NCBI GenBank assembly: GCA_016748015.1
Contig: JAAOMT010000295.1
Span: forward strand, 558,001 to 622,000
Source: Geosiphon pyriformis uo1
Taxonomy: Eukaryota > Fungi > Glomeromycota
Reading direction: 5' to 3'
Length of the DNA: 64,000 nt
Shown here: positions 7,291-54,633 of the stretch, one piece after another
Layout of the letters: each line of letters starts with the position of its first letter
Numbering within the stretch: position 1 is the stretch's first letter
Translations under genes and position numbers: made by a program
The notes under the pieces: model-generated
Told to the model about the DNA's origin: nothing
The model's database searches: none
Seen by the model: only the letters and a program-made list of their open reading frames with translations

Positions 7291-7355
7291 CAGTACAAGC
7301 TTCTCAAACCAACCCATTTTAATTATTAGTAACTTCACTTTTGACAAACACAATA

Positions 7356-13590: not shown

Positions 13591-13620
13591 CTTTTGTTAT
13601 ATTTTTGGGTTAAATTGTTC

Positions 13621-14158
13621 TTAGATTTGTCTTATTTACAATAAACTGTTAGTGTTTCTATTTTCTTTTCTCTTTTTATAATGTACTGTATATTTAAATA
13701 GTAAAAGTTCTATTTTCTATCTGGCATAGTAATTATCTTTAAATTTTTGCTTCTGGATTAATGTCAATTCTTTATGATTAGTATATACTTCAAACTTCTG
13801 GCTTAAATACTTTTTCCATTTCATGATTGCCCAATAGATAACTAAGTGTTCTAATACTGATGTTCCATAGTTTTTTTCTGCTGGACTCAAGTTTTGGCTA
13901 TTATATATTACTGGATGTTCTCATTTATCCAGTTTTTTCTGTAATAGTACAGCTTTTAATACTTGGCCAGATGTATTGGTGGTAATAATGAATAGTTTGC
14001 TGTAATCTGGATAAATTAATACTGGTGTTTAAATAAGTTTTCTTCTTAAAATATTGAAAGTTTCTTGCTGGGCTTCAGTCTATTTATATTTCATGTTTTT
14101 GGTTTGAAGTTGGTAGAGTGGTTAAGCCAATTTAGAAAAGTTCTGGATAAAGTGGTGG
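13621..14158 (-). pseudogene. pol: G RNase H and RT C-terminus, truncated by insertion of F
   Basis: Colinear with B 31391-31930. Confidence 0.8.
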
Positions 14159-22246: not shown

Positions 22247-22890
22247 TATTATGGGTTGGAGTAACAAGCTAATGGATAGCAAGGGAGAACAGGATTGTAG
22301 AGTGATAGAAATAATCAAAGAGAATTCAACTTCAAAGAGCAAATTGAATAAATATGGATTCAATGTGCAAGATCAGTCTCATAAAATATCTCAGTCGCTA
22401 TTTTTTTCAAAGATAATTAGGGAATCTAAAGGTAGAGGGATAGTCTGTACTGTCAACAAATGATCACACTTGGTATAATTCTATGCTTCACGTCGGCACT
22501 CTTAAAATTCAATATCAAGTATTAGATGTGCTCTTCAGTTACATTTTATTCAATAATCTCCAAATGTTGCAATTACATGTTTTCAGGAAAAGGGTAAGGA
22601 ATAACTAACAAGTAATCTTTTATCTTTAAGATGTTCAGATACTTGAAAATAGGGAAAGAGAAATTAGTGATAAGAGAAGAATTGAGATGAAAGTTGTTAT
22701 TTTATTTATTTGATTTTTTTAATTTCTTCATACTTTTCTACAGTTAAGAGATTCATCACTTATATAGCTATCAAAAGTAGTCAATAATCAGATCAATGAT
22801 CACTTACTAAAAATAGAGTGGCTAATTTATATGACATCAGTGGCTAATACATATGATAATTAATAAGAAGTATAAGTTTCAATCATAACA
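22247..22890 (-). repeat. A2 3' LTR
   Basis: Repeat of 39412-40103 and reverse complement of the A1 LTRs; PPT ggagaggatga at 22891-22901. Confidence 0.92.
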
Positions 22891-23516
22891 TCATCCTCTC
22901 CAAAGAGATTGAGCTTCGGTGAAATTAAGCTATTTATGATGTATTCTATTGGAAGGGTTTTATCTAACTCAAAGCTAACTAGTTTGTTGAAGTTTTTTGT
23001 CGATAAGGTATATAATACTTGAGACAAAATAAGTTTTGTATTCAAGAGACTAAATCTTTGTATTAGAGTTTTGGCTCTTTTAGCAATAGTTAAAACTTTT
23101 GAGACATCTAATTGTATAATACCCAAAATTTCTGCCTGTATTTCTGAAGTTGTTTTTTTTATGAGTTTCATATCCTCTATGATTTTACCAAAGCAACCAT
23201 AGAGTTTTAATTGTCTTCTATATGACAAGTTTTTGTCTATGGGTAAGATTTTTTGAAGTGTTTTTTCAATTGTGTTGGAAGGTAGGAGTATAGCTGCTGT
23301 TATGCTTTCCAACAGATATTTATTCATTTTACTACCAATTCTTTCTCTTTTGGTAATGGTTTTCTTTGGTCTAATAACAATATGTGTTCTACTGTTATCA
23401 GTTATGGTGGTTTGTTTTTCAATGGTTAGAGTAGCATTTGGATAGTTTTTGATCCAATACTCATGAAGAATATAAAAGATGTTTTGAATGTTTTGATCCA
23501 GAAAATAATTGTTTAT
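22860..23516 (-). CDS. A2 ORF3, 218 aa, uninterrupted frame (start ATG decayed to ATA; ATG retained in A1)
   Basis: Part of listed ORF 22860-23612; no obvious signal peptide or TM helix; overlaps the PPT and the first 31 nt of the 3' LTR. Confidence 0.75.
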   Translation of the reverse strand: MNNYFLDQNIQNIFYILHEYWIKNYPNATLTIEKQTTITDNSRTHIVIRPKKTITKRERIGSKMNKYLLESITAAILLPSNTIEKTLQKILPIDKNLSYRRQLKLYGCFGKIIEDMKLIKKTTSEIQAEILGIIQLDVSKVLTIAKRAKTLIQRFSLLNTKLILSQVLYTLSTKNFNKLVSFELDKTLPIEYIINSLISPKLNLFGEDDVMIETYTSY

Positions 23517-23557
23517 GTTGATTGAAGATATCTCTGTTTTGAGAATGGTACATTTAT

Positions 23558-24871
23558 TTATACTTGATTTTTGCTGATCATTTAAGTCGGTATTACCACA
23601 ACAAACAGCCAATTAGGTCGTTTATAGTATTTCTTGAGTTGTATATCATGAACAAGACGATTATTGAAAATTGTTCTGGATTGATCTTGAAGAATATAAA
23701 AACCATTGTTCAAAACTTTGTTAACTATAAAGGGTTCTTTCCACTAGCTAGAAAATTTATCACCATAAACATTGTCTCTGTTAGAACAGTATTCTAGTAC
23801 CAAGTCATCAACACTTAAAGAAAGTGTTTTATAGGTTTTCTTTTTTTTAAGCTTTTCTTGGAACTGTTTTATCTTTTCAAAGGCAATTATTCATGCTTCT
23901 ACCAAGGAGTCAAAAATGGTACCAAGTCTTTTTTGCAAAATGTCTTTGTAATTTTCTATTGTGATTTCTTTAAAGAGTATTGTTTCAATGTTAGTTTCTA
24001 TTAGTAGTGTTGTTATGCATCTATAAAGCAGATAAAAAAATTCATAACTTGTTATGTCATGATTCACATTTCTATAAGCAAACAAAGCTGAAAGCAGTAC
24101 TTTGTTCCATAAGTTTGTTTCTTTACTGGTTTTGACTAGAGTTTCACATAATATTCTATTGAAATATTTCACTAGGCCATTTGTTTGAAGGTGATAAGAG
24201 AAGGAAAGTTTATGACGTATTCCTATTTTTCTGCAAAGTTCTTTAACCAGTGTATTGAGAAAAGCTCTTCCTCTATTAGATAAAAGTTCTTTAAGGCAGC
24301 CATGATAACAGATAATATCTTCATAAATGAAATTGGCTATTGAGACTGCTGTTTGGTCTGGAGTGGCTCTTGCTTCTACCCACTTTGTAAAATAGTCAGT
24401 AGCTGTAATAATATATTTGTTGCCATCAGGAGTTATTGTTAAAGGTCCAACAACATCTATACCAATTCTGTCAAATGGTTGACCAACAGAGATTGGATAG
24501 ATATCTTCTTTGCGATTGGGTTTGCCTTTTCTTTGGCAGATGTCACAGGTTTTAATGTATTTAGCAATGTTTTTTCCCAAGGTAGGGCAATAATAGTGAG
24601 CTAAAGTTTTCTAAATTGTCTTTGTTTTTCCAAAGTGTCTAGCTAATAGATTAGTGTACATGTTGTATATTACAATTTCTCTTTCTTCAAATTTGATGAC
24701 TCTCTGGAGGCAGTCAGGATCTTTTCTGTTTCTTTTGTATAATTGGTTCTGGTAAATTAAATAAAAATTTGATTGTTTATGCAAATGTTCTCTTTGCTGT
24801 CGAGTGTATTCAGGTGGGTATTGTCCTTTACTCAAAAATTTCATTAAGACAGAGTAGTTGTCCAAGTCCAT
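23558..24871 (-). pseudogene. A2 stand-alone integrase ORF (about 437 aa)
   Basis: ORFs 24611-24871 and 23891-24580 in one frame; HF..CDIC, GIDVVGPL, TDYFTKW, YHLQTNG. Confidence 0.9.
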
Positions 24872-24935
24872 TATTGTGTTTGTTTATGAAGGAGTTACTA
24901 ACAATTAAGTTGGTTTAGTTTGAGAGATTGTACTG

Positions 24936-27626
24936 TTACTGGATGGTAAGTCTAAAGAAAGTATTGGCATTTTGATGATTTGCTCCTTTGCAGTATTGAA
25001 TATCATAGTCAAATTCGTCCAAGTGGAGTATCTAGCAAGTTATTTATTTGTGTTTCAGCTTCTTTTTCTTGCACAGCCAAACCAAGGCTTAATGATCTGT
25101 TACCACTAAGAATTTTGCACCAAAAAGATATTGATCCCAGTAGTTGGTAGCCCAAACTACTGCTAAACATTCTTGTTCAGTAACTGAATAGTTCTTTTCT
25201 GTTGGTGTGAGGGATCTACTTGTATATGCTATGGCATGTTCTCTGTCATTTTCATCTTTCTGTAAAAAAACAGCACCAAGTCTATAGCCAGATGCATCAA
25301 TGTGAAGGATAAAAGATTGGTCCAGATCAGATTGTTTAAGAATTGGTTTAGTAACAAGTTTTTTCTTTAAAAATTCAAAAGCTTTTTGTTGATGAGTGCC
25401 TTAGTAATAATTAACATTTTTCTTGAATAGCTGATTAAAAGAAAAGACAATTTTGGAAAAATTCTTGATAAATTTGTGATAGTAAGAGGCCAAACCAAGG
25501 AAAGAGCATAGTTTAGGAACATTTATTAGTTGTCTAATGTTTTGAACTTTTTCAACTTTAGCTGGATCAGGAAAGATTCCATCTTTTGTAACAAGATGAC
25601 TAAGAAATTGGGTGGATTGGCATCCAAAGAAAGATTTGATTGGGTTGATCTTAAGACCAGCATTTCTGAACAGGTTAAAAACCTTCTGTAAATATTCAAG
25701 ATATTTATCCCAGGTTTTTGAATATACTATTATGTTGTCTAAGTAAACCAGAACAAAGTTTTTTTTTACTGATTCAAACACTTTATCCATTAGGCATTGA
25801 AAGGTGGAAGGAGCATTGGTGAGACCAAAAGACATGACTGTGAATTCATAGGTGCCATACTTAGTGATAAAAGCAGTTTTCTTTCTGTTTTCTGGATCTA
25901 TCTTTACTTGCCAGAATCCAGCAGTTAAGTCAATAGTTGAGAAAAAAGCAGCACTATTGAATTTATCTAGCATTGCATCAATTTTGGAGAGTGGGTATAT
26001 GTTTCTTATAGTGATGGTATTTAGTTGGCGATAGTCAACACAGAAGTGTAGGATTTCACCTTTTTTGAATACCATTACAACTAGAAAAGCCTATTCCCTC
26101 TTGGTTTTTTGTATGAATCCAAGATCTTTTATTTGGTTTATCTCTTTTTTGATAAACTCATCATTGTGTCAATTAGATTAATAAGGCTTCAAATGGATGG
26201 GGTGAGTTTCTTTGGTGGTAATGGTGTGTTGTATCACATGGGTTCATCCAGAGATGTCATCTTCTTTTGAGATAACTGGGCTATTTCTAGCCAACAGATT
26301 TTCAATGTTCACTTTTTTTTTTTCAGAAGAAGGTTCTCTTTGTTCTATAATTAGTGATTGGATTTCAGGTAATTCATTCTCAAAGGACTTTTGTACTTCT
26401 TTAAGTTCTTCTCGAGGTATCAAACTAATTGGTTCCCAATCTTTGTAGTAGATTAAGCAGGATTTGCATTCATCACTTGGTGAATACAAAGGTTTATTAC
26501 ACCAGCACTATGCACAAAAGCCATGTCACCAATAACTGTATTTTGTTTTTTTGCTAAGTTTTCTGTCAAAGGTTTTTCTGAAGATATCATAGTAGAGCCA
26601 GCAGATCAACTTGCCATTTATCATAATTTCTTCTTTGTTAGCTTTAACATTGTCTAATGGCTTGCCATTGCTGGTAAAGATAGTATAGACAAGTTCAGCA
26701 GTTTCTTTTTGTTCTTCTTGATCTTTATTATTACTCTCATCATCATCTGATTCATCTGATTGTTTTTTTTCTTGGTTCTGTTTGGATACTGAAGGAGTTG
26801 TCCAATGACAGCTTTTAATCACAATGGGTTTCTTACCACATCTGATAGTTAGTTTGCAAAGTTTATAGTCAAGTAGTGCTTTGGCTTTCTTAAGCCATTC
26901 ATTATCAACAATGATGATGTACTCTTTTGCTTCAGATATTTCCATATCTGTTTCAATGCTGATACCATTAATGCAAACAGGAATAGCTTTGGCTATGTCC
27001 AGGCCTTTTTTCTTGTTACCATATATATTAGTCATTGGTTTTGTGGAAGACTAATCAATCTTTCTGCCAATTACTTCAAGAAAATGTTTGGCAATTACAC
27101 TAACAGATGATTTATTGTCTAGGATCAGATCAATGAAGTAACCAGCCACTTGGGCTTTATAAATCAAAGGGGTGACATTGCTGTTATCAGCAAGTCCAGC
27201 TTGGCGAGGGCATTTGTTAATCTTTGGTGTCTTTTTTTTTGATATCAATGATTTGTGAAGATCTTTTCTGAATTGTGGATGAGTCATCAGTTGGCCAAAT
27301 ATAATGTGTGCTGGGGTTTCCATAAGATCTTTAACAATGGAATAGAGTCCAGATTTTTGTACAATTTCTGGAGGTTCTAACTTTGGAGGATTTTTAAAAA
27401 TCTTAGTCTTTGGTGGCTCATTGTTATCAGCAGATGATTTGAATGCTTTGTTTAGGTCCAGAACGAAATCAATCTTGGCTTTTTTCTTCTTTCTGGTTGA
27501 TTCAGAGGTGTTGATTGCTAGTTTATTCATATCATGATTATTATCAGTTAGGTTAAAAGCATAAAAGAGGTTTTTTTCTGGTTGGCTTGCACTCTCACCC
27601 TTTGGAGATGCGTCTACCAGTTTAAA
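24936..27626 (-). pseudogene. pol: A2 pol (protease, small Cys cluster, RT, RNase H), in the -1 frame relative to gag
   Basis: ORFs 27051-27530, 26526-27035, 26244-26489, 25401-26075; stop at 24936-24938. Confidence 0.9.
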
Positions 27627-28383: not shown

Positions 28384-29249
28384 TGTTATAGGTGACTATT
28401 TCTGGTGTTGGATTAAATAACAAACCTGTAACTTGATGCTCAAATCTAATTACAGTCAATAGTGATCTGAAGGTTTGTGTCTGAAAGGTCTGTATCCAAA
28501 GGGTTTGGTTGAGTTCTTTGTATAATAGACAGAGATTCAATGGTAATAGTTTTATCCGTAGCTTTCTGAAACTGCAGTTTTGTCAATTTCTTTCTCAGCT
28601 TAATGGCTGGTATTCCTCCTGGTAAGCTATCCTTAATCGAGTGTTCTACTCTTATTTCTGGGTCTTTTACCAGTCATGTTTATTCTGACGTCAGTACCCC
28701 ATGTATTAATCCTCAATAGAGTTAGTAAACAACAATAAAATCAAGGCAAGAAATAAAGAAAATAAAATAAAAAAAGAAAAGAAATAAGCCAAGACGATTT
28801 GCAAGTTAGTATTCTGTCAATAGCCATGATCAAGAGCTATTGTTCTAGTGTAGTTAAGTATCAATTACTATCAACATGAAGTGTTAATAGGGGCAGTGGG
28901 TTTGAAATAATAAACAGTTATTTATTTGTGGTTTGGAAAGTTGTCCAGATCAAATCTAAACTGAAAGGTCTGTTTTTTTAGCTTCTAATCTTACTGCTAT
29001 ATATATATAATTGAGATTCCTCAATTCTTCAATTCTTCACAACAGGAATCTTGGGATTCTTGGAATCCTACAATTTCTTTGAGAGGAATTCTGGAATTCT
29101 GGAATCCTGTGATTCCTTATAAGAATTCTGTAATTCCTGGAATCCTGCAATTTCTAAGAGAAATCCTAGAATTCTACATTTTACTATGTTTACTTCTGAT
29201 TGGTTAATAACTATGCTAATATATATTCTCTATATTTCTATGAGTAACA
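28384..29249 (-). repeat. B 3' LTR
   Basis: Direct repeat of 37724-38573; PPT aaaaggagggaataa at 29250-29264. Confidence 0.95.
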
Positions 29250-29262
29250 TTATTCCCTCCTT

Positions 29263-29892
29263 TTAATATTGAGCTCTGTCGAAATCTAACTCTGTTAATT
29301 CCCCTTCTTGAAGTATTTTCTGAATTTTATTTTTGAGAATTAATTGTGTTATTTGAGTCTGTAATTCTTCAAATTGAATGTTGGTGATCTTTTCTAATTG
29401 ATTACTGGTAACCATATTTATTGCTTTGTTGAGTAAGATTTCTGTTCAATCCTGAAATGCTGTATGTATTCAGTATATGGCTTGGGCCTGTGTGGATAAG
29501 TTGTTCTTTCCTACAAAGTGTTTTAATTGTTGTAGTATTCTTGTGTCGAATAATCACTTTGTTTTATCTGTATATAGATTCTGGATATTCATGTGTTGTC
29601 CCAAGTAAAAATAACAATAGTTTCTTGGAAATTGTTGTATCCACCAATTCCAAGTTTCTTTAGTTAACTCTTGGTATAGTGACTCTTTTGTCAACTCTTT
29701 TATTACTAATTTTACTTTTGCAATGATTTTGTCAACAGTATTTTCTGTTTTCTTCTGTGTTCTATGTGGCGATGTCTTTTTAGTGTCTTGATATCAGATG
29801 GTTTGTTGATTAATTGTAATTTCCATCTCTTGGTGTTGAATTAATTGAAAGAGTTGTTGTGTTTGTGAGTAGATGTTGTCTGTAATTTCCAT
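29263..29892 (-). pseudogene. B ORF3 (209 aa; four TGA stops, probably from CGA)
   Basis: MEITDNIY...DFDRAQY*, single frame, homologous to C/G/H ORF3. Confidence 0.8.
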
Positions 29893-29946
29893 TTTTTTGA
29901 TATTTCTTGTTGTATCTACCATGTCTTTATATATTCTTTTGATGAA

Positions 29947-31329
29947 TTAATTTAACATGTTGTTGTTAATGATGATGATTGGTTCCAGATCTCATGGAAT
30001 CTCCTCTGGTTGGACTAGTATCTTTTGTACTCCTAATTGTGAAATATTACTGGTGAATGGTGGTGTGATGTTGTGGTATGGTTTCAGTCGATTTCTATGT
30101 GCTGCTTTGGTTAAGATTTTGTTATCCAGTCTTAATTTGTAAGCTCTATTCCCTAGAATTTCTTCTATGTAAAATGATTCATCTCATTTGGAGTCGAATT
30201 TTTTACTCCATTGTTTTTCCGTTTTGGTATGATGTAAAAGTACTTTGTCTCCAATCTTGAATTCAACTGGTTTGTCTGGTAGTTAATTATCATGTCTTTT
30301 TTTCTGTTTCTCTTGTGACTTTTGTATGTTATCAGCTGCTCTTTTTTGTTTGTTTTCCAATGTTTCCATTAAGTTATATGTTCTTCTTAACAATGTTTCT
30401 TGGAAATTTTCTTCTGTTATTGGTTCAGTTGGATATGTGTTAACCTCTATCTCAATTGGTAATGTTGCTGTTCTACCATATATCAATTTAAATGGTGTTG
30501 CTTGTGTAGTGTCTTGCTTTATTGTCCGATAAGCAAATAATACTGATGGTATGAACAAATCCCATTTGTCCTGGTTTTCTTGGCTGAGTTTCACTATTGC
30601 TTCACACAATGTTCTATTAAATCTTTCAACTAATCCATTGGTTTGTGGATGGTATGGTGATGATAGTAGTCTCTTAATTCCGAATTTTTGGCTTAGTTCT
30701 GTTAATGTTCTATTCACAAAATGAGTTCCTTGGTCTGATAATAGTTCTTTTGAACATCCATGTTAACAAATCAGATCTTGATGGACGAATTTGACAACAG
30801 ATTCTGCATCTGCTCTTTGAATTGCTTTGGCTTCTGGCCATTTAGTAAGATAGTCCATAGCTACTACAATATATCTGTTGTCTCTGCTAGTAATTGTCAA
30901 TGGTCCAACTAAATCAATTCCAATACAGTCAAATAGTTGTCCTACTTTAATTGGTCTCAATGGTTTGCTGGGTCTTGTTCCTCTTCTTTTTTGACAAGCA
31001 TCACAATTTTGCACATATTGGATGATGTCTGGATATATTAATGGCCAATAGTATCTTTTTCTGGTTTTTTCTATGGTTGTTTCTTTATGAAAATGTCCTG
31101 CAGTTGGATTTGAGTGCATGTTGAACAGTATTGTCTCCTTTTCTGGTTCTGTAATTACTCTGGTTGGTTGATCTGAATCTTTTTTATTTTTCCGATAAAG
31201 TATATTTTGGTGAGTAATAAAATATTTGGATTGTTGTTTGATCCTCTTTTGTTTTGTTTGAGATAATTTTTCCTTGAACTGTTGAGTATTTATATAATAT
31301 TGAAGTTGTTGATATTTTTGTGTGTTCAT
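29947..31329 (-). pseudogene. B stand-alone integrase ORF (about 460 aa; HHCC, DDE, GPY/F-like region, no chromodomain)
   Basis: ORFs 30763-31329 and 30283-30717 in frame; MH..GHF..CDAC, GIDLVGPL, SDQG, YHPQTNGLVER. Confidence 0.92.
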
Positions 31330-31390
31330 CTTTTGTTATATTTTTGTGAGTATTGTTTTAGTTTTGTTATATTTTTGGGTTGAAATGTTC

Positions 31391-34300
31391 TTAGATTTGT
31401 CTCATTTGCAACAAACCATTAGCATTTTCATTGTTTTTTCCCTTTTTATAATATATGATATAAGTATATGTTGAAAGAGCCATTTTCTATCTTGACTGTC
31501 TTTTGTCTCCAAATTCTTGTTTTTGGAGTGATGTCAATCTTTTGTGATCTGTGTACACCTCAAACTTTTGGCTCAAGTATTTTTTCTATTTCATAACTGC
31601 CCAATAGATTGCTAGATGTTCTAATTCTAGTGTTTTATAGTTCTTTTCGGCTGAAGTCAAACTTTGGCTGGCATATGTGACTAAATGTTCTCTTCCATCT
31701 AATTCTCTCTGAGATAGTACTGCTCTTAATGCTTAACCTGATGTATCAGTGGTGATAATGAATGATTTACTATGATCTGGATAGATCAATACTGGAGCTT
31801 GAATAAGCTTTCTTCTTAAGATGTCAGATGCTTTTTGCTGGGTTTCAGTCTATTCATACTTTGCATTTTTGGTTTAAAGATCATTGAGTGGTTGTGCTAT
31901 CTTTGAAAAGTTCTTTATGAAGCATCTATAATAGCTCACAAATCCCAAGAATGATTTCAGCTCAGTTACGTTGGTTGGTATTGGAAAGTTCTTTACTATT
32001 TCTATTTTCTCCAGATCTGTTTTTATGCCATCTTTGCTAAATATGTGTTCCAAGAATTTTAGTTCTGTTTTGTCAAAAAAACACTTTGTTGCATTCAATT
32101 TTAATCCTGCTCATCATAGTCTTTCGAACACTTGTTGGAGATGATGTAGATGATCATCAAATGTTTTTAAGAACACATTGGTGTCATCCAAGTATACAAC
32201 CACTGATTTCCATAATAAGCCAGTATATACAATTTCTATTAGCTGTTAGAATGTAGCTGGAGTATTGTTTAAGCCGAATGGCATAACTTCAAACTTAAAG
32301 TTTCCCTCTCTTGTAGTGAATGCCATTTTTTCTTTGTTGGCTTACTTGCCAGTACCCACTATTCAAGTCTAACGTTGAGAACCATTTGTTTTCACCGAAA
32401 GTGTCAAATAGTTCTTGTATTCATGGAGTTGAATAGCTGTCTCCATGAGTTACACTATTGAGTTTTCTGTAGTCTACACAAAATCAGATTTTTCCATTCT
32501 TTTTATGGACGAATACTACTGATGACGACTATGGGCTCATTAATGGCTGAATTAACCTGTTGTCAAGCATTCGGTTGATCTCTTGATAAATGATTTTATG
32601 GCTGGCTGGTGGTACCCTATATGCTTGCTGTTTGATTGGCATTGTATCTCCAGTCTTGATCTGATGCTGGATAATATCAGTTCTGCCAAATTCATTTTTA
32701 CTAGCAAAAATGTTATTGAAATTATTGAGTAACATCTTTAGTTGCATTTGTTGAAGTGGGTCTAGATTTCTTATGTTCATCTGTTCCAATTGTTCTGGCT
32801 GTAACAGATAACATTCATTTTATCTGTAGATAGTTTGTAATGTAATGTCCACATATTCACAAAGCTGTGGAAAATCTGGAATGCTGCTTGGTGCTTGATC
32901 TTCAATTTTCATGGTTAAATATCTGAAAGTGGTTTTTTCTGGTATCTTTACAACATTTTCAGTATTGTTGTAAATGGGAATTTTGATATGGTTATGGCTT
33001 TTGACTGGTATATGTAGATTGATAAGTCCAATTTCTCCTGATTCACAAAGGGTTGCTTCTGCTTCAAAAATCTGTTCTTGCTTCTTTTCTCTTCTTTCTA
33101 TTGCTAATATGTATTGGCTATATGGTGGAATGGAAATTGTTTGACCAGTTGAGATAATTTCTTCTTGGCCAATAATTTCTTCCTCTATCATATTAACTGG
33201 TACATTTATTCTACTCATTAATTCAAATCCCTGTATCCCTTTTGTTGTTATCTCTAATTCTTCTCTATTTTCCACTAACACTAACTGAGCTATTTTAACC
33301 AGAGACAGAAATATTGCCTGTGTTATTCTTTCATTTGGCTCTATAACATAGGTCTTTTCTGAGTCATTTTGTAGTATAGCAATGATATTTCTTATATATC
33401 CTGTATCAATTATTCCTTCTCTGATGTTTATTCCCTTTTTCGCTAAACTACTCCTAGATGCTAATTGAACTATTGTTGTTGCTAGAATTTCCAGTGCTAT
33501 TTTCAGATCAATGCAAATACACGAATGGGGTTCCAATTTGATGGCATTCTTTTCTGGATATCTCAGATCAAATCTTGCATCAGTATCATGCACATGTTCT
33601 GGCATGATACTTTCATTCTTATCACTGAACCATTTCAGTTTTTGCTCTTTGGTGAGATCAGGGAGTGTGATATATTGTTCATAGTTTGAATTAGAGTTTG
33701 AATCTGAGTTGGAATCATTGTCATTGTTATAGCCATTTTGAACGGAGCTGGAACCATTATTTTCATTATTGTTATTGTTAAAGTTTGAATCAGGGTTGGA
33801 ACTCAATTTTGATTCTGATGCACAGCTGTTGATTGGTTCTTCTTCTTTAGGGATTGTGTAGATCATGCGTGGTGGTGGATTGTAAATGAGGTCACAATTA
33901 TCACAAAATTGGAAGTCACATGGAATCAAACAGTAGTCATATAATTGGATGTTGATTTCTTTCAAGCGTTGCTCTTGCTCTTCTCTTGTGGGTGCTAAAT
34001 TCTGATAGTGTTCATAGAATTTTTCTGGGCTGTTTTCTAAGTCAATAAAGGCATCCGGATTGAGAACCAAAACAATGTCTGTTGGTTCTGGAGGGTTATT
34101 CTTGATCTTCAGAATTTCATTGGGTGAAGCACCTTCTATTTTGGCATTGGCCATTCACCAGATCTCATCCTTGTCATGTGGATAGCCGTCTAGGCGGGAT
34201 ATAGCTCAGTGCCATGCTGCTGTGATGAGCGTACCATGACTCACCCAGTCACTAATGAGGATCATGTATTGGCATGAAACATCGCACATTTCTCCTTGAC

Positions 34301-37300
34301 CAGGAATGTTGTTTCACATTTCTTCGTCAAGTAATTGTTCACTGCAAGCAAAACATGGTTTGTTGTCCTACTTGCTTTGTCTTTTTGGGTAGTCATATTG
34401 TTCTCTATGGCAGGGCTTACAATAGTAATGGGTTCACATCCAGTAGTCTTTATCTGATACTATCCAAGCTCCCATTAAGGACAGTTTCTTTTCACAGTCC
34501 TTGCATTTGAAAAGTATATATGACGGCTCTTTTATTGGTTCACGTGAGTATTTCCTTTCCCAGCCACTAGTTATTTTTTTTGCAATGGTGGTTTCTTCAA
34601 GTATGTTTTCTTCCCTTCCTTTTTCTTTTTCCTTGTTTTTTTCTTTCCAATCTAGAATTGATAGCATCTTGCTTTGGTTGTTGTCAGTTCAAGCATTGAT
34701 GATGGCTTCCCAAGTAGATTCTTCTCTTTGTTTCTCCTTTCCATTGTCATTGTTGTCCCAAACAAATATTGGCAGCAGTTCATTGTGGTTGACATTGGCC
34801 CATGAGACTTGGTACGCTTCCCAGGTGGGTTTCACTTTTTCTTTCTTGAATTTGATAAGTGGTGTTGATGGCATAATGATGGGCTTGAAGTGGCCACACG
34901 TGGCTGGTACCCATGTGTGTCAACCATTCTGGCTAAGCTGGAGCTCTTGGGTGTTCCAATCTAAGATTGTATTGGTTTTAAACAGCCAGTTGTTTCCAAT
35001 GAGTGCTTGGTATTAAGTGGCTTCCATAACGAATACTTTGATTGGTACTATGATGCCATTGACTTCTATGGAAAAATCATCAATCTCTTCAATGGGTGTT
35101 TTGGTTGCTCCATCAGCTGTAATAATCCTGGTGCTGGCAGCATAATCAACTCGGTGACCTAATTGATCTATGAGTTGTCTTGTGATGATGCTGCCAGCTG
35201 ATCCACTATCCAGGATCAGTTTGATGGAGTGATTATCAACTTTCACATCAGTGTACATCATGGTGATGAGTTTTTCCTCAAGTGCTGTTCCATTGAACAA
35301 AGATGAGTTGATGGTTTCCTCCAATTCGAAAGGAAAGATGGCTGCAAGAAATTCATTTTTGGTGACCATTGCTGGTGGAATATTGTTGGTAAGTATTGTT
35401 TGAAGTGGGTTGGATTCCGAGTTGTTGGTCATGACATCTTCTGAGATAACCAGAAGACTTAAATAGTTCTGAGAATTTGGGTTTTGGGTGGAACCAGTAC
35501 CTGAATTCTACTGTTAAGAGCCTAATGGTTGGTAAGAGAAGCTGAGGATTAGTTGATGAACAACTATTGCCGATCTCCAGTTTTGAGTGATTCTAGGTCT
35601 TGGGTTTCCTGATGTCATTTGAGTGGGGTTTTAGAGTGGTGTTTGAATTGGTTGTTGGGGCTGATAAATTATTTGGGGCTATGGCTGATAAATTACTGGT
35701 GGCTGCAGTTGATAAATTGAAGATTGATATACTGGTAGTTGATAGATTGGTTGTTGCATTATTGGCAGGTAAGTGGTTTGATATTGGTCTTGATTTGGGT
35801 AGTGATTCTAAGTCTGAAATCTGTGATCAAGATTTTGATATTAATTTCCTGATCATGAATTGTTGCTATAAAATTGACAGTTGGCTCTAATGTAACCTTG
35901 TTTACTACAGTTGTGGCAAACACACATTTCTGGCTGTCACAGCTGATTGGATAATGTTGATGATGATGATATTGATGGACATAGCTGATTTTGGAAACGA
36001 TTCGTGTTTCTTGAATTATTGCATTATTGTGGTAGTTAATAGATTGCATGATTGTCAGCTAAGTATCCCTCTAGTTTCTGATTGATTGTATTACTGAATT
36101 GTTTTAGTTTGGAATCCAAGTCAGATGATCTGTTTATTACTAAATTTACAGCTTGGGCATGATTGGCTTCTAGCTTGGCTGCTTCAAAATCTCTGGTGTG
36201 GTTAATGGCAGTTGGGAGGTTAACTGGATGCATTGGATGTATTCACTAAAGGATGCTACTGTGCAATCCTCTAATGAACTGGTTTAAGATCTGTGGTGCT
36301 GTAAAATAATCAGCTTAGATTGCCTGAATTTGGCACAGATTTCTATAAAAGTGTCCCAAGTAAGTAGTAACTGCTTCTGTGTCCTCTTGTTTGATGGTGG
36401 TAAATGTGTTGGTCAAGTGATTGATACTATTGTTATTACTAAAGTATCTCAAAAATTCTGTTTTAAACTCATTGAAGATTTGTGATTTAGCAGCTAGGCT
36501 CTGATACCACGAGTTAGCAGTATCTTTGAGAAAATAGGGGATTGCTTAAAAGGCTCTACTGTTATTCCATCCATTGGCCACTATGGCTTTTTTAATGTTG
36601 TTGAGCCATATTTGGGCATTGTCCTCTTTGCCAGTAAAATTGTCAAGTTTTGCAATTGGTACATAGGCCATTGGATCTAAGTTGGGTTGTTGTGGTGGTA
36701 GTTGAAATGGTTGTTGTTGTATAGATTGTTAGGGTGGTAATTGAAGTGGCAGTTGTATGAATTCGGCTATTGGATTAATCAGTGGTTGATTGATGACAAT
36801 TACTGGAGATAAGTTTTGTTGATTTATTAAATTGGAGTTTTAATTATTCTGAGTTGGTGGTGTCTGAATATTCAGAGTTTCAATTTCTGGATTTTCTGGG
36901 TTTAGATTTTGCTGGGTTTGAAGATTTGGGGTTTCAAATTCCGAGTTTTCAGTGATTGGGTTCTGGTAAGTGAATTCTTGATTTTTAGCTTCTTTTTTTT
37001 CCTCTTTTTCTGATTTCATTACTTCCTACAAATCAGAAATTCCGAAATCTGAGGGAGGTGGTGGCAATTGAAGTCCTGATGGCATTAATGATTGTGAGTT
37101 AAATCCTTTAAAATACATGCTGTATGGTTCTAATAACTCTGCTTTCCTTTGTTTACTTTGGAATAGGAATTGTTCAAATGCTGATGTTATGTTTAATGTG
37201 GCTGCACCAGTAGATGTAATATTAATGACACTTTCAGGTGTATAGTGGTATGATGGATTAGTTGGGGACTCAACTCTTGTTTTCTTCCAAGTAGGTGATT

Positions 37301-37664
37301 GTATTCTTTTGGGTATTACTGCTGGTGTTTGCAGTTTTCCTTTGCCTTTGCTCACATAAGTAATAGAATATCTTTGCTATATATAGTGTTCAATTTTTTT
37401 GTTGATTTCCATAATGATGAAGACGAAATTGTGATTTGTTGGCAGGTTGGTATTTTGAATTAATTCACTGTAAAAGGCTTCTCTTGCCGATTCAATATTT
37501 ACTGGTGTTCCTAACAGATAGGCAATTCTTTTGTTGATGTAGAAATTAAAAGCTAATTTTGCTAATATGTGGTTGTGATTTAATCCCAAATGTTGACAGT
37601 AGTATTGAAATAAGAATTTTGTGAATTTTAGATGGTTTGCTCCTATGTTTTCTGATTCTGCCAC
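31391..37664 (-). pseudogene. B Gag-PR-Cys-rich-dUTPase-RT-RNaseH polyprotein (about 2090 codons)
   Basis: CHNCSKQGYIRANC knuckle reads in frame into LILDSGSAGS; dUTPase motifs; VYLDD at about 32185-32200; TDTSG RNase H motif; stop after MRQI. Confidence 0.9.
33205..33640 (-). other. dUTPase domain within B polyprotein
   Basis: DARFDL (DAGFDL), ASRSSLAKKGI, GIIDTGY, ITQAIF, KGIQGF: motifs 1-5 of trimeric dUTPases. Confidence 0.88.
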
Positions 37665-37723
37665 TTTTAGATTTGTGTTGGTGCTGGTTCTCTGTAGGAT
37701 TATACCTCACAGAGAGCACCAAA

Positions 37724-38573
37724 TGTTACAGATAACTATTTCTGATGTTGGATTAAATAATAAACCCATAACTTGATGCTCAAATTTAATTACAGTCAAT
37801 AGTGATCTGAAGGTTTGTGTCTGAAAAGTCTGTATCCAAAGGGTTTGGTTGAGTTCTTTGTATAATAAACAGAGATTCAATGGTAATAGTTTTATTCGTA
37901 GCTTCCTGAAATCACAGTTTCATCAATTTTTTTTTCAGCTTGATGGCTGGTATTTCTCCTGATAAGCTATCCTCAATCGAGTGTTTTACCCTTATTTCTG
38001 GGTCTTTTACCAGTCACATTTATCCTGAAGTCAGTACCTTATGCATTAATTCTCAATAGTATTAGTAAACAACAATAAAATTAAGACAAAAAATAAAAAA
38101 AATAAAATAAAATAAAAAAAGAAAAGAAATAAGCCAAGGCAATTTGCAAGTTAGTATTCCATCAATAGCCGTAATCAAGAGCTATTATTCTAGTATAGTT
38201 AAGTATTAATTACTATCAACATGAAGTGTTGATAGGAGCAGTGGGTTTGAAATAACAAACAGTTATTTATTTGTGATTTGGAAAGTTGTCCAGATCAAAT
38301 CTAAACTGAGAGGTCTGTCTTTTTAGCTTCTAATTTTACTGCTATATATACATAATTGAGATTTCTCAATTCTTCAATTCTTCACAACAGGAATTTTGGG
38401 ATTTCTGGAATCCTGCAATTTTTTTGAGAGAAATTCTGGAATTCTGGAATCCTGTAATTTCTGAAATCCTGCAATTTCTGAAAGGAATCCTGGAATTCCA
38501 CATTTTACTATGTCTACTTCTGATTGGTTAATAACTATGCTAATATATATTCTCTATATTTCTATGAGTAACA
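37724..38573 (-). repeat. B 5' LTR
   Basis: Adjacent PBS; on the minus strand a CCAAT box (about 38523), GGAATTC-like repeats and a TATA-like box (about 38343-38350). Confidence 0.95.
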
Positions 38574-38577
38574 TCGA

Positions 38578-40103: not shown

Positions 40104-40107
40104 GTAT

Positions 40108-40884
40108 AATCAAATCTCATTTGTCCTGGTTTTTTTGACTGATTTTGGCAATGGCTTCACACAATGTTCTGTTAAACCTTTCAACTAACCCATTTGTTTG
40201 TGGATGATATGGTGATAATAATGGTCTTTTTATCCCAAATCTTTGACTTAATTCTGCCAATGTTCTATTCACAAAGTAAGTTTTTTGATCTGATAGTAGT
40301 TCTTTTGAACATCCATGTTGATGAATTAAATCTTGATGAATGAATTTGGCAATGGATTCTGCATCTGCTCTTTGAATGGCTTTTGCTTCTGGCCATTTTG
40401 TGAGATAATTCATGGCTACTGCAATATATCTGTTGTCTCTGCTGATTATTGTTAATGATCTGACTAAGTCAATTCCAATGTAATTGAATGGTTGTCTCAC
40501 TTTGATTGGTCTTAATGGTTTACTGGTTTTTGTTCTACCTCTTTTTTGACAAGCATTACAACTTTAAATGTATTGAATAATATCCAGATATATTGATAGC
40601 CAATAATATCTTTTTCTGGTTCTTTTCATGATTGTTTCTTTATGAAAATGTTCTGCTGTTGAATCTGAATGTATGTTAAATAATATTGTTTCTTTCTTTG
40701 ATTCTGTAATTACTCTGATTGGTTGATCTGAATTTCTTTTGTTTTTCTAGTAAAATATATTTTAATGGTTAATAAAATATTTTGATTGTTGTTTTATGTT
40801 CCTTTGTTTTTTTTGAGATAATTTCTTCTTAAACAATTTAGTATTGATATAATGTTGGAGTTGTTAATATTTTTGTATATTCAT
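40108..40884 (-). pseudogene. C stand-alone integrase, N-terminal and core part
   Basis: ATG at 40884; ORF 40117-40500 with GIDLV, YLTKWPE, YHPQTNGLVER. Confidence 0.88.
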
Positions 40885-40915
40885 TTTTTTGTTATATTTT
40901 TGGGTTAGAATGTTT

Positions 40916-43900
40916 TTAGATTTGTCTTATTTGTAACAATTTATCAGCATTTCTGTTTTTTTTTCCTTTTTTATAATGTACTGTATAATTAAATGGTAAA
41001 AGTTTTATTTTTTATCTAGCATGACAATTGTCTGCAAATTTTTGTTTCTGAATTGAAGTCAATTTTTTATGATTGGTGTACATATCAAACTTTTGATTCA
41101 AGTATTTTTTCCATTTAGTAACAGCCCAATAAATAGCTAAGTGTTTTAGTATTGAAGTTTCATAGCTCTTTTCAGCTGGACTTAAGTTTCTACTAGTGTA
41201 AGCTACTGGATGTTTTCTTCCATCCAGTTCTCTCTGCAATAATACTGCTCTCAATGCTTGGTCTGATGCATTAGTGGTGATGATAAATGGTTTGCTGTGG
41301 TTTGGATAGATTAATATTGAGGCTTGAATAAGTTTTTTTTTTAGTGTGTCAAAGGCTTTTTATTGTATTTCAGTCTACTTGTATTTGGTGTTTTTTGTTT
41401 GAAGTTGGTGTAATGATTAAGCTATTTTGGAAAAGTCTTTGATAAAGCAGCAGTAATATTCAGCAAATTCCAAAAATGCTCTTAGTTCTGTCAAGTTGGT
41501 TGGTACTAGAAAGTTCTTGACCACTTCAATCTTGTCTGGATCTATTTTGATATCATCTTTGTTTACCATATGTCCCAAAAACTTGAGTTCTATTTTTCCA
41601 AAGAAACATTTGGTTGTATTTAGCTTTAATCCAGCTCTTCTTAGTCTTTCAAACACTTGTTAAAGATGATGCAGATAATTATTAAATGTTTTTAAGAACA
41701 CATTGGTGTTATCTAAGTATACAACTACTGATTTTCATAGCAGTTTTGTATAAACAATTTCTATTAGTCATTGAAATATGGCTGGAGCATTTATCAAGCC
41801 AAATGGCATTATTTCAAATTCAAAGTTTCTTTTTCGAGTTGTAAAAGTTGTTTTTTCTTTGTCTTCTGATTTCATGGCTACTTGCCAATAACTGCTGTCT
41901 AAGTCTAAAGTTGAGAATCATTTTTTTCTTCCAAAAGCATCAAATAGTTCTTGAATTTTTGGAGTTGGGTAACTATCACCTTTGGTTACTCTATTCAATT
42001 TCTAGTAATCTACACAAAAGTGTACTTTTCTATTTTTCTTATGGACTAGTACCACTGGTAATGACTATGGGCTCATTGATGGCTGAATTAACCTATTGTC
42101 AAGCATTCGATTGATTTTTTGACAAATAATCTCATGGCTGGCTAGTGGTACTTTGTATGCTGTTTGTTTAATTGACATTGTATTTCCTGTCTTAATTTGA
42201 TGTTGGATGATGTCAATTCTGCCAAATTTGTTTTTACTGGCAAATATATCATTGAAATTGTTAAGTAATATTTTGAGTTGCATATGTTGTAGTGGATCCA
42301 AGTTTCCCATGTTCATTTGTTCCAATTGTTTTGGTTGGAGCAAATAATATTTATTTCATCTATATATTGTTTGTGATATAATATCTACATATTCGTACAG
42401 TTGTGGAAAGTCTGGAATGGTATTTGGTAGTTGGTCTTCAATTTTAATAGTTAAGTATCCAATAGTGGTTCCTTTTGATATCTTAATGATGTTTTCCATA
42501 TTGTTGTAAATGGAAATTTTGATGTGACTGTGGTTTTTGGCTGGTATGTATAGATTGACTAATCCAATTTTTTCTAATTCACACAGTGTTGCTTCTGCCT
42601 TAAAAATCTAAACTTGATCCTTTATTTTTCTTTCTATGACTACTATGTACTGATCATATGGTAGAATAGAAATTAATTGATGGGTGGAGATAATTTCTCC
42701 CTTGTCAACAATTTTTTTCTTTGCCATATTAACTGGTATATTTATTCTACCTATTAATTCAAAACTCTATATCTCTTTAGCCGTAATCCCTAATTCTTCT
42801 CTGTTTCCTATTGACACTAACTGAGCTATTTTCACCAGAGGTAGGAATATTGCCTGTGCTATTTTTTTATTTGGCTCTATGATATAGGCCTTTTCAAAGT
42901 TATTCTGTAGTATTACAATGATGTTTTCTACATATCTTATATCAATTATTTCTTTTTTGATGTTGATTCCCTTTTTTGCTAAACTGCTCTTAGATGCTAA
43001 TTGAACCATTGTTGTTGCTAAAATTTCCAGTGCTATTTTCAGATTAATGCAAATATGCAAATGTGGTTCCAATTTGATGGCATATTGTCCTGGATATCTC
43101 AGATTAAACCTTATATCAATATCATGTATGCATTCTGGCATAATACCTTTATTATTATTGCTGAACCATTTTAGTTCCTGCTCCTTGAAGAGATCAGAAA
43201 GTGTGATGTATTGTTTAGAGTTTGAATCTGAGTTCCAATCATTGTATTTTTTGTTGTCATTTTGAGCAGAGCTGGAACTATTGTTTTTGTTATCATTGTC
43301 ATCAGAGTTTGAATTGGAATTGAAAATTGATTCCAATTTTGATGTACAGCTGCTGATTGGTTTGTCTTCCTCTGGAATCATGTAGATTATGTGTGGTGAT
43401 AGATTGTAAATAAGATCATACTCATTACAATATTGAAAGTCACATGAAATTAAACAGTAATTACATAGTTGGGTGTTGATTTTTTTCAGGCATTGTTTTT
43501 GTTCTTCTCAAGTGGGTGTTAATTCTTGGTAGTGTTTGTAGAATTGCTTCAGATCCAGGAGATTTATGACTGGTTTTGGGTTCCAATCAAGTTTTATGAG
43601 TTCTGGAGAGTTATTTTTCATTATTCTGATTTCCTCTGATAATGTGCCTTCGATTTTGGCAAGTGCTATTTGCCATATTTTGTCATTATTATATGGACAA
43701 CTGTCCAGATGTTTTATTGCTCTTCTTCAAGCAGTTTCTATTGGTGTTCTTTTTCTTACTTAGTTATTTATTAGGATTGTGTACTGACATAATTTGTCGC
43801 ATGTTTCTCCTCTCCCAAGAATGTCATTCCACATTTCTTTGTTGTGAAGAGTTTCATCACAAGCCAAGCAGAGTTCTTTGTTCCATTTTTTTTGTTTTTT

Positions 43901-47875: not shown

Positions 47876-47879
47876 CCAG

Positions 47880-52377: not shown

Positions 52378-52434
52378 CACCAACAACAAATCCACTACAA
52401 CTTACCAACTTACCAACAAAATAATCAAACAACA

Positions 52435-53979: not shown

Positions 53980-54633
53980 ATGATTATTTCCCGAAATATC
54001 CAACAAATATCCCAAAAATTAATGTTAGCCTTGAAAACACTTTCTGACTTATCCATAACAATTAATAAAAGTCAAATTAATTACATTCAGAAAAAAACCA
54101 CAGTCCCAGTAGTAAACAATTCTCGAAATTATCACTCCTATAGAAGAAAAACAAGAAGCCACTCTGAAAATTAATTACCAGAACTTTTAAAGCAAGCACT
54201 AAAAGAAAACTTTTTATTTGCCTCTATTGACATTTCACCAAATGCCACAATTCAACAAAAACTTCTATTATTTTTTAATGAACAGAACAATGAACATACC
54301 CTTATATATAGATATTTCCATATTGAAAAAACACTTTATAAACGAAAACTGAAACTTGAAACAACCAACATTACTTCTAAGACTATACAAAAACAAATTC
54401 ACAATGAATTCAAGACAGCAGCTGGACTAACAAACACTCACTACAAACTTAGAGCAGCATTTAGACTCTATGAGTTATTCAACACTTATGAAAACATTCT
54501 ACAAAATCTAATACTTTATCCAATAAAGATTCAATATATTGGAAAGCTCACAGAACTGAAATTTCAACAATTTTCAGACCAAATCACTTCAATTATTTTG
54601 GACCACTATTTTGATATTATGAATAGTACTTGA
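53980..54633 (+). pseudogene. D ORF3 (217 aa, one internal stop)
   Basis: ORF 53980-54174 continues in frame to TGA at 54631; homologous copy at 1236-1871. Confidence 0.78.

Follow-up and report, generated by a model that had tools for sequence, protein, structure and literature searches.

Element B, on the reverse strand of the 64-kb window (the whole stretch of DNA analysed), is bounded by direct LTRs with TG...CA ends and carries a primer-binding site (PBS) and a polypurine tract (PPT) (Table 1). Elements A2 and C are organized similarly. The target-site duplication is an exact 4 bp in A2, and those of B and C deviate only by C>T/G>A changes. Between the LTRs of B lie a decayed gag-pol, with 52 stops in its frame versus 123 and 168 in the other two, a stand-alone integrase (IN) ORF and the decayed remains of a third ORF (ORF3). 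The domain order PR-RT-RH-IN holds for the window elements, and a dUTPase domain between PR and RT is also present in C and D. The IN ORF of B contains four decay stops and its 3' end is uncertain, the profile match ending at 30067, and the IN of C is broken at 40104 by the insertion of A2 and continues at 22249.

Two decayed gag fragments of the window gave no match in the Pfam scan; Ty3_capsid, Retrotrans_gag, and zf-CCHC domains were found in gag of the relatives L018 and L039. At the gag/pol boundary of A1 and A2 lies a TTTAAAC heptamer, which occupies the same boundary in relatives L002, L013, L022, and L035. The heptamer is rarer across the window than expected by chance (15 versus 38 occurrences) and is informative only by its location at this boundary.

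Table 1. Features of element B, pol/IN junctions, and related features of the window
Feature	Position	Strand	Remarks
B 5' LTR	37724..38573	-	TG...CA ends
B primer-binding site	37705..37721	-	2 nt past 5' LTR; identical sequence in family A
B gag-PR-dUTPase-RT-RNase H	31391..37706	-	Decayed, essentially single frame
B dUTPase domain	33234..33611	-	Between PR and RT; Pfam PF00692, E 4.5e-15
B stand-alone IN ORF	29947..31329	-	N-terminal extension, HHCC, DDE, GPY/F region
B ORF3 region	29255..29946	-	Decayed, same frame as IN; IN boundary uncertain
B polypurine tract	29253..29264	-	
B 3' LTR	28384..29249	-	89% identity to 5' LTR
A1 TTTAAAC heptamer	4609..4615	+	gag/pol boundary; candidate -1 frameshift site
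A2 TTTAAAC heptamer	27620..27626	-	gag/pol boundary
A1 junction	7288..7358	+	TAA 7288-90, 65-nt spacer, IN ATG at 7356
A2 junction	24869..24938	-	TAA 24938-36, 64-nt spacer, IN ATG at 24871
G junction	13588..13623	-	TAA 13623-21, 30-nt in-frame spacer with second TAA, IN ATG at 13590
B junction	TAA 31391..31393; spacer 31330..31390	-	TAA ends gag-pol; 61-nt spacer, IN ATG at 31329
C junction	40882..40918	-	TAA 40918-16, 31-nt spacer, IN ATG at 40884
D junction	52375..52437	+	TAA 52375-77, 57-nt in-frame spacer, ATA at IN start position
D ORF3	54175..54633	+	Weak match to relatives' ORF3, hhalign E 0.013, probability 3%
A2 ORF3	22860..23612	-	Weak match to relatives' ORF3, hhalign E 0.063

Junctions between pol and IN in the window

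In all six window copies, TAA lies 3-4 codons past the decayed NxxxDxLSR motif of RNase H (4 codons in B). The stop positions and the A/C-rich, G-poor spacers of 65, 64, 30, 61, 31, and 57 nt (A1, A2, G, B, C, and D, respectively) given in the initial annotation were re-read and are all as claimed, and the ATG said to open IN behind the spacer (ATA in D) was likewise seen. The spacers contain 0-4 G and 38-65% A, are unstructured (MFE 0 to -1.3 kcal/mol), and are all free of ATG. Their lengths modulo 3 are 2, 1, 0, 1, 1, and 0 in the same order, so that all three values occur, as had been proposed, but the argument from three frames rests partly on within-family indels because IN follows in frame in both G and D. 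The ~30-nt duplication described in the B spacer was found as a 31-nt insert between repeated motifs, and this spacer has an extra TAA in the pol frame at 31369-67 and another in the IN frame at 31338-36. The double stop assigned to A1 holds for its second TAA, which alone is shared with A2; the first corresponds to CAG in A2 and reflects decay.

The copies contain 84 stops in 4331 codons (1.9%), and RT likewise contains stops shared family-wide (2 of 173 columns in B/C/G and 4 of 428 in A1/A2). A chance origin of the six junction stops appears unlikely (~1e-4, as estimated from decay rates), but the window alone constitutes no proof because the copies are decayed and the G and D junctions are in frame. 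Invariance of the TAA across family copies, proposed as a check, was borne out in 737 contigs from one sequencing run, possibly that of the source sample, which aligned to 31320-31412: an alternative letter at a frequency of at least 4% was never listed at 31391-93 or anywhere in 31361-31412. The loose ends of the same contigs indicate many copies with a short C-type spacer.

Separation of pol and IN in relatives

Relatives were examined at 80 metagenome loci, of which 51 were informative, the end of RNase H being visible upstream of IN. None of the 51 encodes an RH-IN fusion. Pol ends in TAA at 33 loci, TAG at 12, and TGA at 6, and both ORFs are undamaged in 42 of the 51. Spacers range from -20 to +943 nt and cover all frames, with 37 of 50 junctions out of frame, and in 22 further loci the IN frame is closed 2-20 codons above the ATG. 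The Pol tail past RNase H measures 1-344 aa across relatives and 220-340 aa in some subclades.

Stand-alone integrases of ~420 aa, among them named Rhizophagus and Entrophospora proteins, share the start Met; the start falls within 3 residues of the window ATG position in 94 of 120 IN homologues, and of 105 RT homologues extending to the end of RNase H, 101 have a stop within 40 aa. No IN was found in 120 RT-RH homologues and no RH in 120 IN homologues, both sets comprising only proteins up to length limits (893 and 914 aa). When length was unlimited, 21 of 22 proteins at ≥400 bits were stand-alone, some being fragments and one Ginger1-like. Stand-alone integrases also occur outside the core clade (P0545 from Lichtheimia, P0503, P0533, and P0536). 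Intact multi-copy families are present in R. irregularis, a model species for which RNA data exist. One gene model of this species, P0129 (44% identity), in which 91 aa connect RNase H to IN, could be a true fusion; among its neighbours, P0127 and P0540 are fused. The split of pol and IN is almost certainly real and extends beyond the window. It is conserved over a deep lineage in which the catalytic residues of IN are intact and RT and IN are co-inherited, and the gag-pol / IN / ORF3 plan put forward in the initial annotation, with IN as its own ORF, is thereby upheld.

The integrase and its relation to RT

The HHCC motif is present in 22-23 of 23 integrases, and DDE and GPY/F are each present in 23 of 23. 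Among solved structures, Ty3 Gag-Pol matches best (E 1e-46). Residues Y6, Y/F12, P19, F/Y37, and Y/F45, which precede the zinc finger, are conserved. Homologues end at ~410-450 aa and contain integrase domains only; chromodomain PF00385 is absent from the 120 IN homologues and from the window IN pieces. The viral contigs contained three weak partial integrase matches.

Distances between RT sequences correlate with those between integrases (rho 0.71, 0 of 2000 permutations), and the two trees have 6 supported splits in common, out of 9 and 8; judged from these sequence comparisons, the integrase is co-evolving with its RT. In trees without named reference elements, the RT groups among fused Gypsy-type polyproteins. 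The split state needs two changes on the RT tree, with 0 of 200 bootstrap trees having one, and in the careful RT tree the split group sits between two fused groups. Because this tree is unrooted, gain and loss of the split are indistinguishable. Quick RT trees were poorly optimised, and a one-clade tree scored higher (p-AU 0.89).

Translation of IN

In the reading that we prefer, ribosomes would restart on full-length RNA after the pol stop, and IN would be translated from its own AUG. In the families of the window, a fraction of the terminating ribosomes would scan the AUG-free, A-rich spacer of 30-65 nt and reinitiate, yielding less IN than Gag, the ratio that the particle needs. IN made from genomic RNA would then stay with that RNA or with Gag/RT and be co-packaged, the least-supported step. 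In other subclades, the likely route is internal entry or a short IN mRNA. We give reinitiation in the window's families about an even chance, and the complete chain of Ty3/Gypsy-type split elements, IN by reinitiation, and co-packaging stands in similar balance.

Reinitiation is proposed for these families because the spacers are short, unstructured, AUG-free, and A-rich and because AUGs just upstream of the stop are not avoided. That IN has a start of its own is supported by a purine at -3 of its ATG in 64 of 70 cases and by 26 of 30 spacers of 15-100 nt being ATG-free, versus 13.2 in shuffles, which gave 22 at most. The pol stop overlaps the IN start at 6 of 50 junctions (-1, -1, -8, -14, -14, and -20), none of them in the window, and also at some IN/ORF3 junctions. 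With spacers of ≤50 nt, AUG-making codons before the stop are not avoided (30:3), and short or overlapping junctions fit reinitiation. In 16 relatives with spacers of 51-100 nt, the AUG-free zone extends into pol (2:15 versus 25:10, p 7e-5, the comparison involving close relatives that are not independent), and spacers of 149-446 nt mostly have upstream AUGs, yet their last 60 nt are AUG-free in 7 of 9; these observations favour entry that takes place upstream of the stop or does not depend on it. In other subclades, the AUG-free zone or a covarying hairpin suggests that IN has a separate mRNA or is reached by internal entry. The window spacers straddle the short-spacer and 51-100 nt classes, and eukaryotic ribosomes usually reinitiate inefficiently after a long ORF.

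With the split unchanged, IN and ORF3 might instead be translated from a short subgenomic mRNA made from an internal promoter close to where pol ends, a possibility that we entertain only tentatively. It would account for the AUG-poor zone seen over 58 loci ~125-150 nt ahead of the IN start, which runs into pol codons in the 51-100 nt spacer class, for the unconstrained length of spacer (-20 to 446 nt) and Pol tail (1-344 aa), and for eight loci of read-through type in which few ribosomes would get to the pol stop. However, the overlapping stop-start junctions have AUGs 7-34 nt upstream, AUGs lie 66-99 nt above the IN start in five of the six window copies, and base composition shows no positional promoter motif. 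Cap-independent entry at the IN AUG, through the A-rich leader in the window or the hairpin in one subclade, is improbable: a covarying hairpin close to the AUG in 29 of 80 loci and unstructured window spacers of 38-65% A would suit it, but the hairpin is missing from the window and may rather be a packaging or IN-binding signal.

Recovery of an RH-IN fusion from the split DNA by splicing or read-through, a challenge that the initial annotation had itself raised, is very unlikely. Database gene models P0124, P0125, P0143, P0144, and P0129 do join RH and IN, the G and D junctions are in frame, and these elements do recode between gag and pol, but four of the five models drop the RNase H terminal motif including its conserved Asp, GT and YAG are depleted in spacers, and most spacers (37 of 50) put IN out of frame. 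Of 39 loci, 7 could accommodate a motif-keeping GT-AG intron (3 with GTR/YAG), whereas in 32 a fusing intron is impossible, and splice repair was rejected for most loci. It is more doubtful still, to the point of being scarcely credible, that the stops arose from CAA by C>T decay in dead copies or that IN is an unrelated Ginger-like transposon beside IN-less retroelements. The 1.9% of stops in the copies, some shared within families, and the Ulp1-bearing Ginger1-like transposases that score near these integrases lend themselves to such a reading. Decay as the cause of the pol stop is nevertheless ruled out by intact relatives that are split and use all three stop codons, and a Ginger passenger by the RT/IN correlation and the separate grouping of the Ulp1-bearing proteins (SH-aLRT 88), which lie outside the split integrases (97); moreover, IN lies inside the LTRs. 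Restart after the pol stop remains our preferred reading for the window.

Comparison with known systems

In Ty3/Gypsy elements and retroviruses, IN normally reaches the cDNA as a cleavage product of Gag-Pol in the particle. The present elements resemble Ty3/Gypsy (Metaviridae) in their LTRs with TG...CA ends, PBS, PPT, short target duplication, CCHC/capsid gag (in relatives), PR-RT-RH-IN order, and HHCC-DDE-GPY/F integrase. They differ in that IN, there the C-terminal part of Pol, is split off in all 6 window copies and all 51 loci, in an additional ORF3 that belongs to no known family, and in the Pol tail of 220-340 aa and the hairpin before IN that some subclades have. Because IN lies outside the Pol polyprotein, we regard them as a non-canonical Ty3/Gypsy variant, not an ordinary member. 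Their host is likely an arbuscular mycorrhizal fungus. The label "undescribed system" given earlier is therefore better replaced by undescribed variant of Ty3/Gypsy; no description of the architecture, which might already have been catalogued, was found in searches of published papers, the curated databases Repbase, Dfam, and GyDB being outside that search.

Chromoviruses have a chromodomain at the IN C terminus, whereas none was found here. DIRS, Ngaro, and VIPER elements also place the integration enzyme in an ORF apart from RT-RNase H, but theirs is a tyrosine recombinase, their terminal repeats are of another kind, and they lack a protease, in contrast to the DDE integrase and protease here. 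Foamy virus Pol and hepadnavirus polymerase are made apart from Gag and co-packaged into the particle; there the whole polymerase is separate, here the integrase alone. Caliciviruses, influenza B BM2, and fungal victoriviruses use termination-reinitiation at an overlapping or close stop/start after a long ORF, an overlap matched by 6 of 50 relatives, whereas the window has spacers of 30-65 nt instead.

Foamy Pol is described as being incorporated through Gag (PMC12789967). In published descriptions of fungal Gypsy elements with a dUTPase, which B, C, and D likewise carry, IN is included in a Gag-Pol ORF or in the Gag and Pol ORFs (PMC2864245, PMC6431247); here it is separate. The five int states listed by Llorens et al. 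2009 (PMC2774666) concern position and loss, and a separate downstream ORF is not among them. The conserved Y, P, F/Y, and Y residues upstream of the zinc finger may correspond to the motif of the YPYY Gypsy group, which Bao et al. 2010 (PMC2836005) place close to Athila/Tat, Cer1, DGLT-A, and Gypsy-1-I_RO. The same source describes Ginger1 as a ~400-aa free-standing Gypsy-type integrase with YPYY-like, H2C2, DDE, and GPY/F motifs, and the likeness extends to TGTNR-type ends and a 4-bp target duplication. Ginger1 differs in having inverted repeats and no RT, whereas IN here lies between direct LTRs behind gag-pol, and in its C-terminal Ulp1 or OTU domain, Ulp1 occurring here only in the separate group.

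A lineage without the IN-polyprotein link implies that this link is dispensable, and the elements offer a natural system for asking how integrase is otherwise recruited and for studying the expression of three or four cistrons from one eukaryotic mRNA. They also bear on the relation of LTR retrotransposons to Ginger1 transposases, treated as an open question in PMC2836005. Annotations in practice either list them as host genes for a stand-alone "DDE integrase" or stitch them together with false introns. In the TE-rich genomes of mycorrhizal fungi, pipelines requiring an RT-IN ORF would take intact copies for broken ones. A bolder and rather unlikely view is that a deep fungal lineage exists as a polycistronic gag-pol / IN / ORF3 unit that loads IN without a polyprotein, by a new structured RNA near the IN start or by the ORF3 protein, and keeps an unfused state between Gypsy and Ginger1, either as a pre-fusion relic or as an exit route to a DNA transposon.

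Hairpin and ORF3

The covarying hairpin ends 0-14 nt before the IN AUG in 25 of 26 measurable loci. It had no match in Rfam, one unrelated MIR397 match falling below threshold in 19 loci; its exact pattern was absent from the viral contigs searched, and the window gave only two chance-level matches (E 0.62 and 1.3).

No Pfam family was common to more than one of 23 ORF3 members, a Foldseek comparison of the ORF3 structure with PDB and BFVD yielded nothing at E 0.001, and a profile of the relatives' ORF3 found nothing in the window. The best VIA Z was 5.0, among helical repeats, and Atlas matches were under 0.9. ORF3 of the relatives is ~145 aa with an all-helical predicted structure (pLDDT 92.6), unlike the fusion glycoprotein encoded by ORF3 of errantivirus-like (env-bearing) elements.

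Pol and Integrase in the Window

At all six junctions in the window, TAA was found where the initial annotation had placed it, 3-4 codons past the terminal motif of RNase H (RH) and ahead of a spacer and the integrase (IN) start. The spacers, of 65, 64, 30, 61, 31 and 57 nt, contained neither ATG nor structure. Their lengths cover all three frames, as reported, although this spread rests partly on indels within families; in copies G and D, pol and IN share one frame. The decayed LTR elements are nested at four levels, D holding C, C holding A2 and A2 holding B; the A2 insertion, flanked by an exact 4-bp duplication, cuts the integrase of C. Decay had left 84 stops among 4331 codons in the window, and those common to all family members occupied 2/173 and 4/428 columns in RT and 0/233 and 0/252 in IN. 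Because decay is heavy, family-wide stops occur in RT and the G and D junctions are in frame, the window by itself suggests a real split without proving it.

Contigs of one public run, perhaps the source sample, were placed on window positions 31320-31412. Among 737 contigs, an alternative letter reached at least 4% at 31358 and 31360 only, both inside the insert of B. None did so at the pol stop, consistent with its proposed invariance, an unlisted variant in such a comparison not being proof of absence.

Between the two copies of the target duplication, C>T and G>A are the sole differences in B and in C. Both duplications are compatible with a CCGG target (n = 2; the A2 target is different), which is the preference given for Ginger1 DNA transposons in the cited part of PMC2836005.

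Coordinates of features in the window and in metagenome loci of relatives (L handles)
Feature	Position	Description
Nested LTR elements	window 18522-55639	
Element B		LTRs of 850-866 nt; TG...CA ends, PBS, PPT; gag-PR-dUTPase-RT-RH in one frame
B target duplication	window 38574-38577 / 28380-28383	
C target duplication	window 47876-47879 / 20092-20095	
Non-LTR retrotransposon	window 57438-64000 (-)	GC-richer, largely intact; ORF1 with RRM, then endonuclease, RT, RNase H
Perfect direct repeat	window 57040-57619	280 nt, on both sides of 20 consecutive N; probably an artefact of an assembly gap
UGA-CUA sites	L060:2498, L072:3290, L056:2882, L075:1955, L052:870, L071:902, L074:86, L076:45	
Hairpin before IN AUG	L017:1125-1172, L043:15-62	examples
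Pol tail	L018:3491-4438, L039:4342-5163, L023, L028, L031, L049, L054	
ORF3	L004:1682-2125	example
ORF in ORF3 place	L040:1945-2886	314 aa; motif we take to be Nudix-like
Circularly permuted whole elements	L055:1-8018, L011, L031, L039, L049, L060, L067	gag after ORF3; L055 has the same coding stretch at both contig ends

Stand-alone Integrase in Relatives

A query with B's integrase, X replacing its five stops, returned 1145 proteins at E 1e-30, and the best 120 (≤893 aa) were examined. None of these had an RNase H match; 94 started within 3 residues of the site at which the window has its ATG, and a further 16 had as their first residue a Met 17 positions downstream of it. On the RT-RH side, the best 120 homologues (≤914 aa) included 105 that extended to the end of RNase H; 101 of those stopped within 40 aa, and no IN domain was found in these 120.

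Since starts in predicted proteins are placed at ATG by the gene-calling software, and the proteins compared were limited to ≤893 aa, the DNA of relatives was examined. A profile of 32 IN proteins yielded 575 metagenome stretches, of which the best 80 were kept. An RNase H end lay upstream of IN at 51 of these, never fused to it, and both ORFs were undamaged at 42 of the 51. Pol ended with TAA (33 loci), TAG (12) or TGA (6), 1-344 aa past RNase H, and the 50 measurable spacers ran from -20 to 943 nt (13/18/19 modulo 3), premature stops inside a long Pol tail explaining four of the longest. Of the other 29 loci, 22 showed a stop in the IN frame 2-20 codons before the ATG, one lacked an assigned ATG and six were uninformative. 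The separation of IN from Pol claimed for the window is thus upheld in intact relatives, with three stop codons and in all frames. It is practically certain that the split is real, and it is lineage-wide.

When 1.84 billion representative proteins of unlimited length were ranked by best-domain score, stand-alone IN made up 21/22 rows at ≥400 bits, 15/30 at 370-400 and 15/98 below, some of these stand-alone rows being fragments or Ginger1-like. High-identity RH-IN joins were found in the longer-protein search only as eukaryotic gene models. Four of them (P0124, P0125, P0143 and P0144) are without the RNase H terminal motif, the pattern that an intron predicted across the stop would leave. P0129 (44%) keeps the motif, with a link of 91 aa to IN; here a gene-model product and a genuine fusion are indistinguishable. 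The nearest clear fusion was P0127, at 44%. Named homologues came from Rhizophagus irregularis, R. clarus, Cetraspora pellucida and Entrophospora sp.; one R. irregularis cluster had 42 members, including several full 430-aa copies. On the strength of these names, the host of the window's elements is probably a member of Glomeromycotina. A Lichtheimia protein is a more distant, apparently stand-alone integrase. Two members of the family, P0639 and P0640, are filed under an archaeal MAG and are probably fungal contigs binned into it.

Phylogeny and Known Systems

HHCC, DDE and GPY/F are conserved in the split integrases. At the 24 loci where RT-RH and IN are both complete, the pairwise distances of the two were correlated (rho 0.71, 0/2000 permutations) and their trees had six supported splits in common, which makes IN very unlikely to be a passenger beside an IN-less retroelement. 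In a 74-row IN tree (quick search), 21 split rows and 8 further stand-alone proteins formed one group (SH-aLRT 97) adjoining fused YPYY-type elements, and Ulp1-bearing Ginger1-like proteins formed another (SH-aLRT 88). A single origin of the split is compatible with the unrooted trees (p-AU 0.89 for RT, 0.8 for IN); a careful 59-row RT tree needs two changes.

Split elements work like a Ty3/Gypsy element but encode IN outside Pol. For Gypsy elements of fungi and animals, the cited parts of PMC3248453, PMC13524379 and PMC5911963 place IN within Pol, and none of the five int states in the cited part of Llorens et al. (PMC2774666) is a separate downstream ORF. The portions cited also describe an additional RNase H on separate ORFs in Tat (PMC13468544) and the YPYY group, Bao et al. 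leaving open whether Ginger1 arose from Gypsy or the reverse (PMC2836005). As far as their main text was covered, 'integrase' is missing from two AMF TE papers (PMC11075540, PMC11952901). In the openly accessible papers searched, no description of the split was found, and within that literature the architecture is apparently new.

Expression of the Integrase

Recoding upstream takes several forms. A1, A2 and four relatives' loci carry a TTTAAAC heptamer where gag meets pol; B and the loci L018 and L039 have instead one gag-pol frame; and at eight loci a conserved in-frame UGA-CUA, a read-through context, follows PR rather than gag, between PR and RT. A dUTPase between PR and RT is already known from the cited parts of PMC2864245 and PMC6431247. 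Gag-pol recoding is ordinary, and the IN junction looks different in character.

A constant in-frame linker, which would have favored an RH-IN fusion, was not found, 37/50 spacers being out of frame. Fusion by splicing is also unlikely at the DNA level: a GT-AG intron keeping the conserved Asp was feasible at 7/39 loci, with plausible ends at 3, and GT and YAG are depleted in spacers. A purine occupied -3 of the IN ATG at 64/70 loci, and ATG was absent from 26/30 short spacers (13.2 expected). Where the ORFs overlap or the spacer is ≤50 nt (class a), AUG-making codons are common just upstream of the stop (30:3), which fits termination-reinitiation. The window families, with spacers of 30-65 nt and AUGs 66-137 nt above the IN start, are best, though not cleanly, placed in this class; ribosomes ending at their pol stop would reinitiate at the IN AUG. 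We give production of IN by reinitiation about an even chance.

A subgenomic mRNA for IN is a possible, if doubtful, alternative. At the 16 loci with spacers of 51-100 nt (class b), pol avoids AUG-making codons over its final 20 codons (2:15 versus 25:10 upstream), a significance overstated by the close relationship of these loci, and the last 60 nt of long spacers are AUG-free in 7/9 (shuffles, 25/2000). Both observations suit a short IN mRNA, or ribosomes entering before the pol stop; internal ribosome entry as such is improbable. The expression route, reinitiation included, and the delivery of IN to the cDNA are what we infer. ACGGA, enriched in spacers of the closely related L002-L013 group (17 versus 2.8 in shuffles), is a candidate promoter or RNA motif.

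Hairpin, Pol Tail and ORF3

In class (c), the IN AUG is preceded by a conserved RNA hairpin of 40 nt with an 11-nt purine-rich bulge and a capping triloop. Compensatory changes were present in 8/12 pairs (23 sequences; shuffles leave relatedness in). The model matched 29/80 loci, 23 of them training sequences, and the hairpin ended 0-14 nt upstream of the IN AUG at 25/26 loci. A model search found no hairpin in the window, and Rfam gave no match. Mainly in the hairpin subclade, Pol continues past RNase H as an acidic, Cys/His-containing tail of 220-340 aa with no Pfam match.

Downstream of IN, 37/83 loci carry ORF3, a helical protein family of ~145 aa that in some loci overlaps the IN stop. 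Its confident all-helical model matched no fold or family, and it is not Env-like. The window ORF3s match this family weakly.
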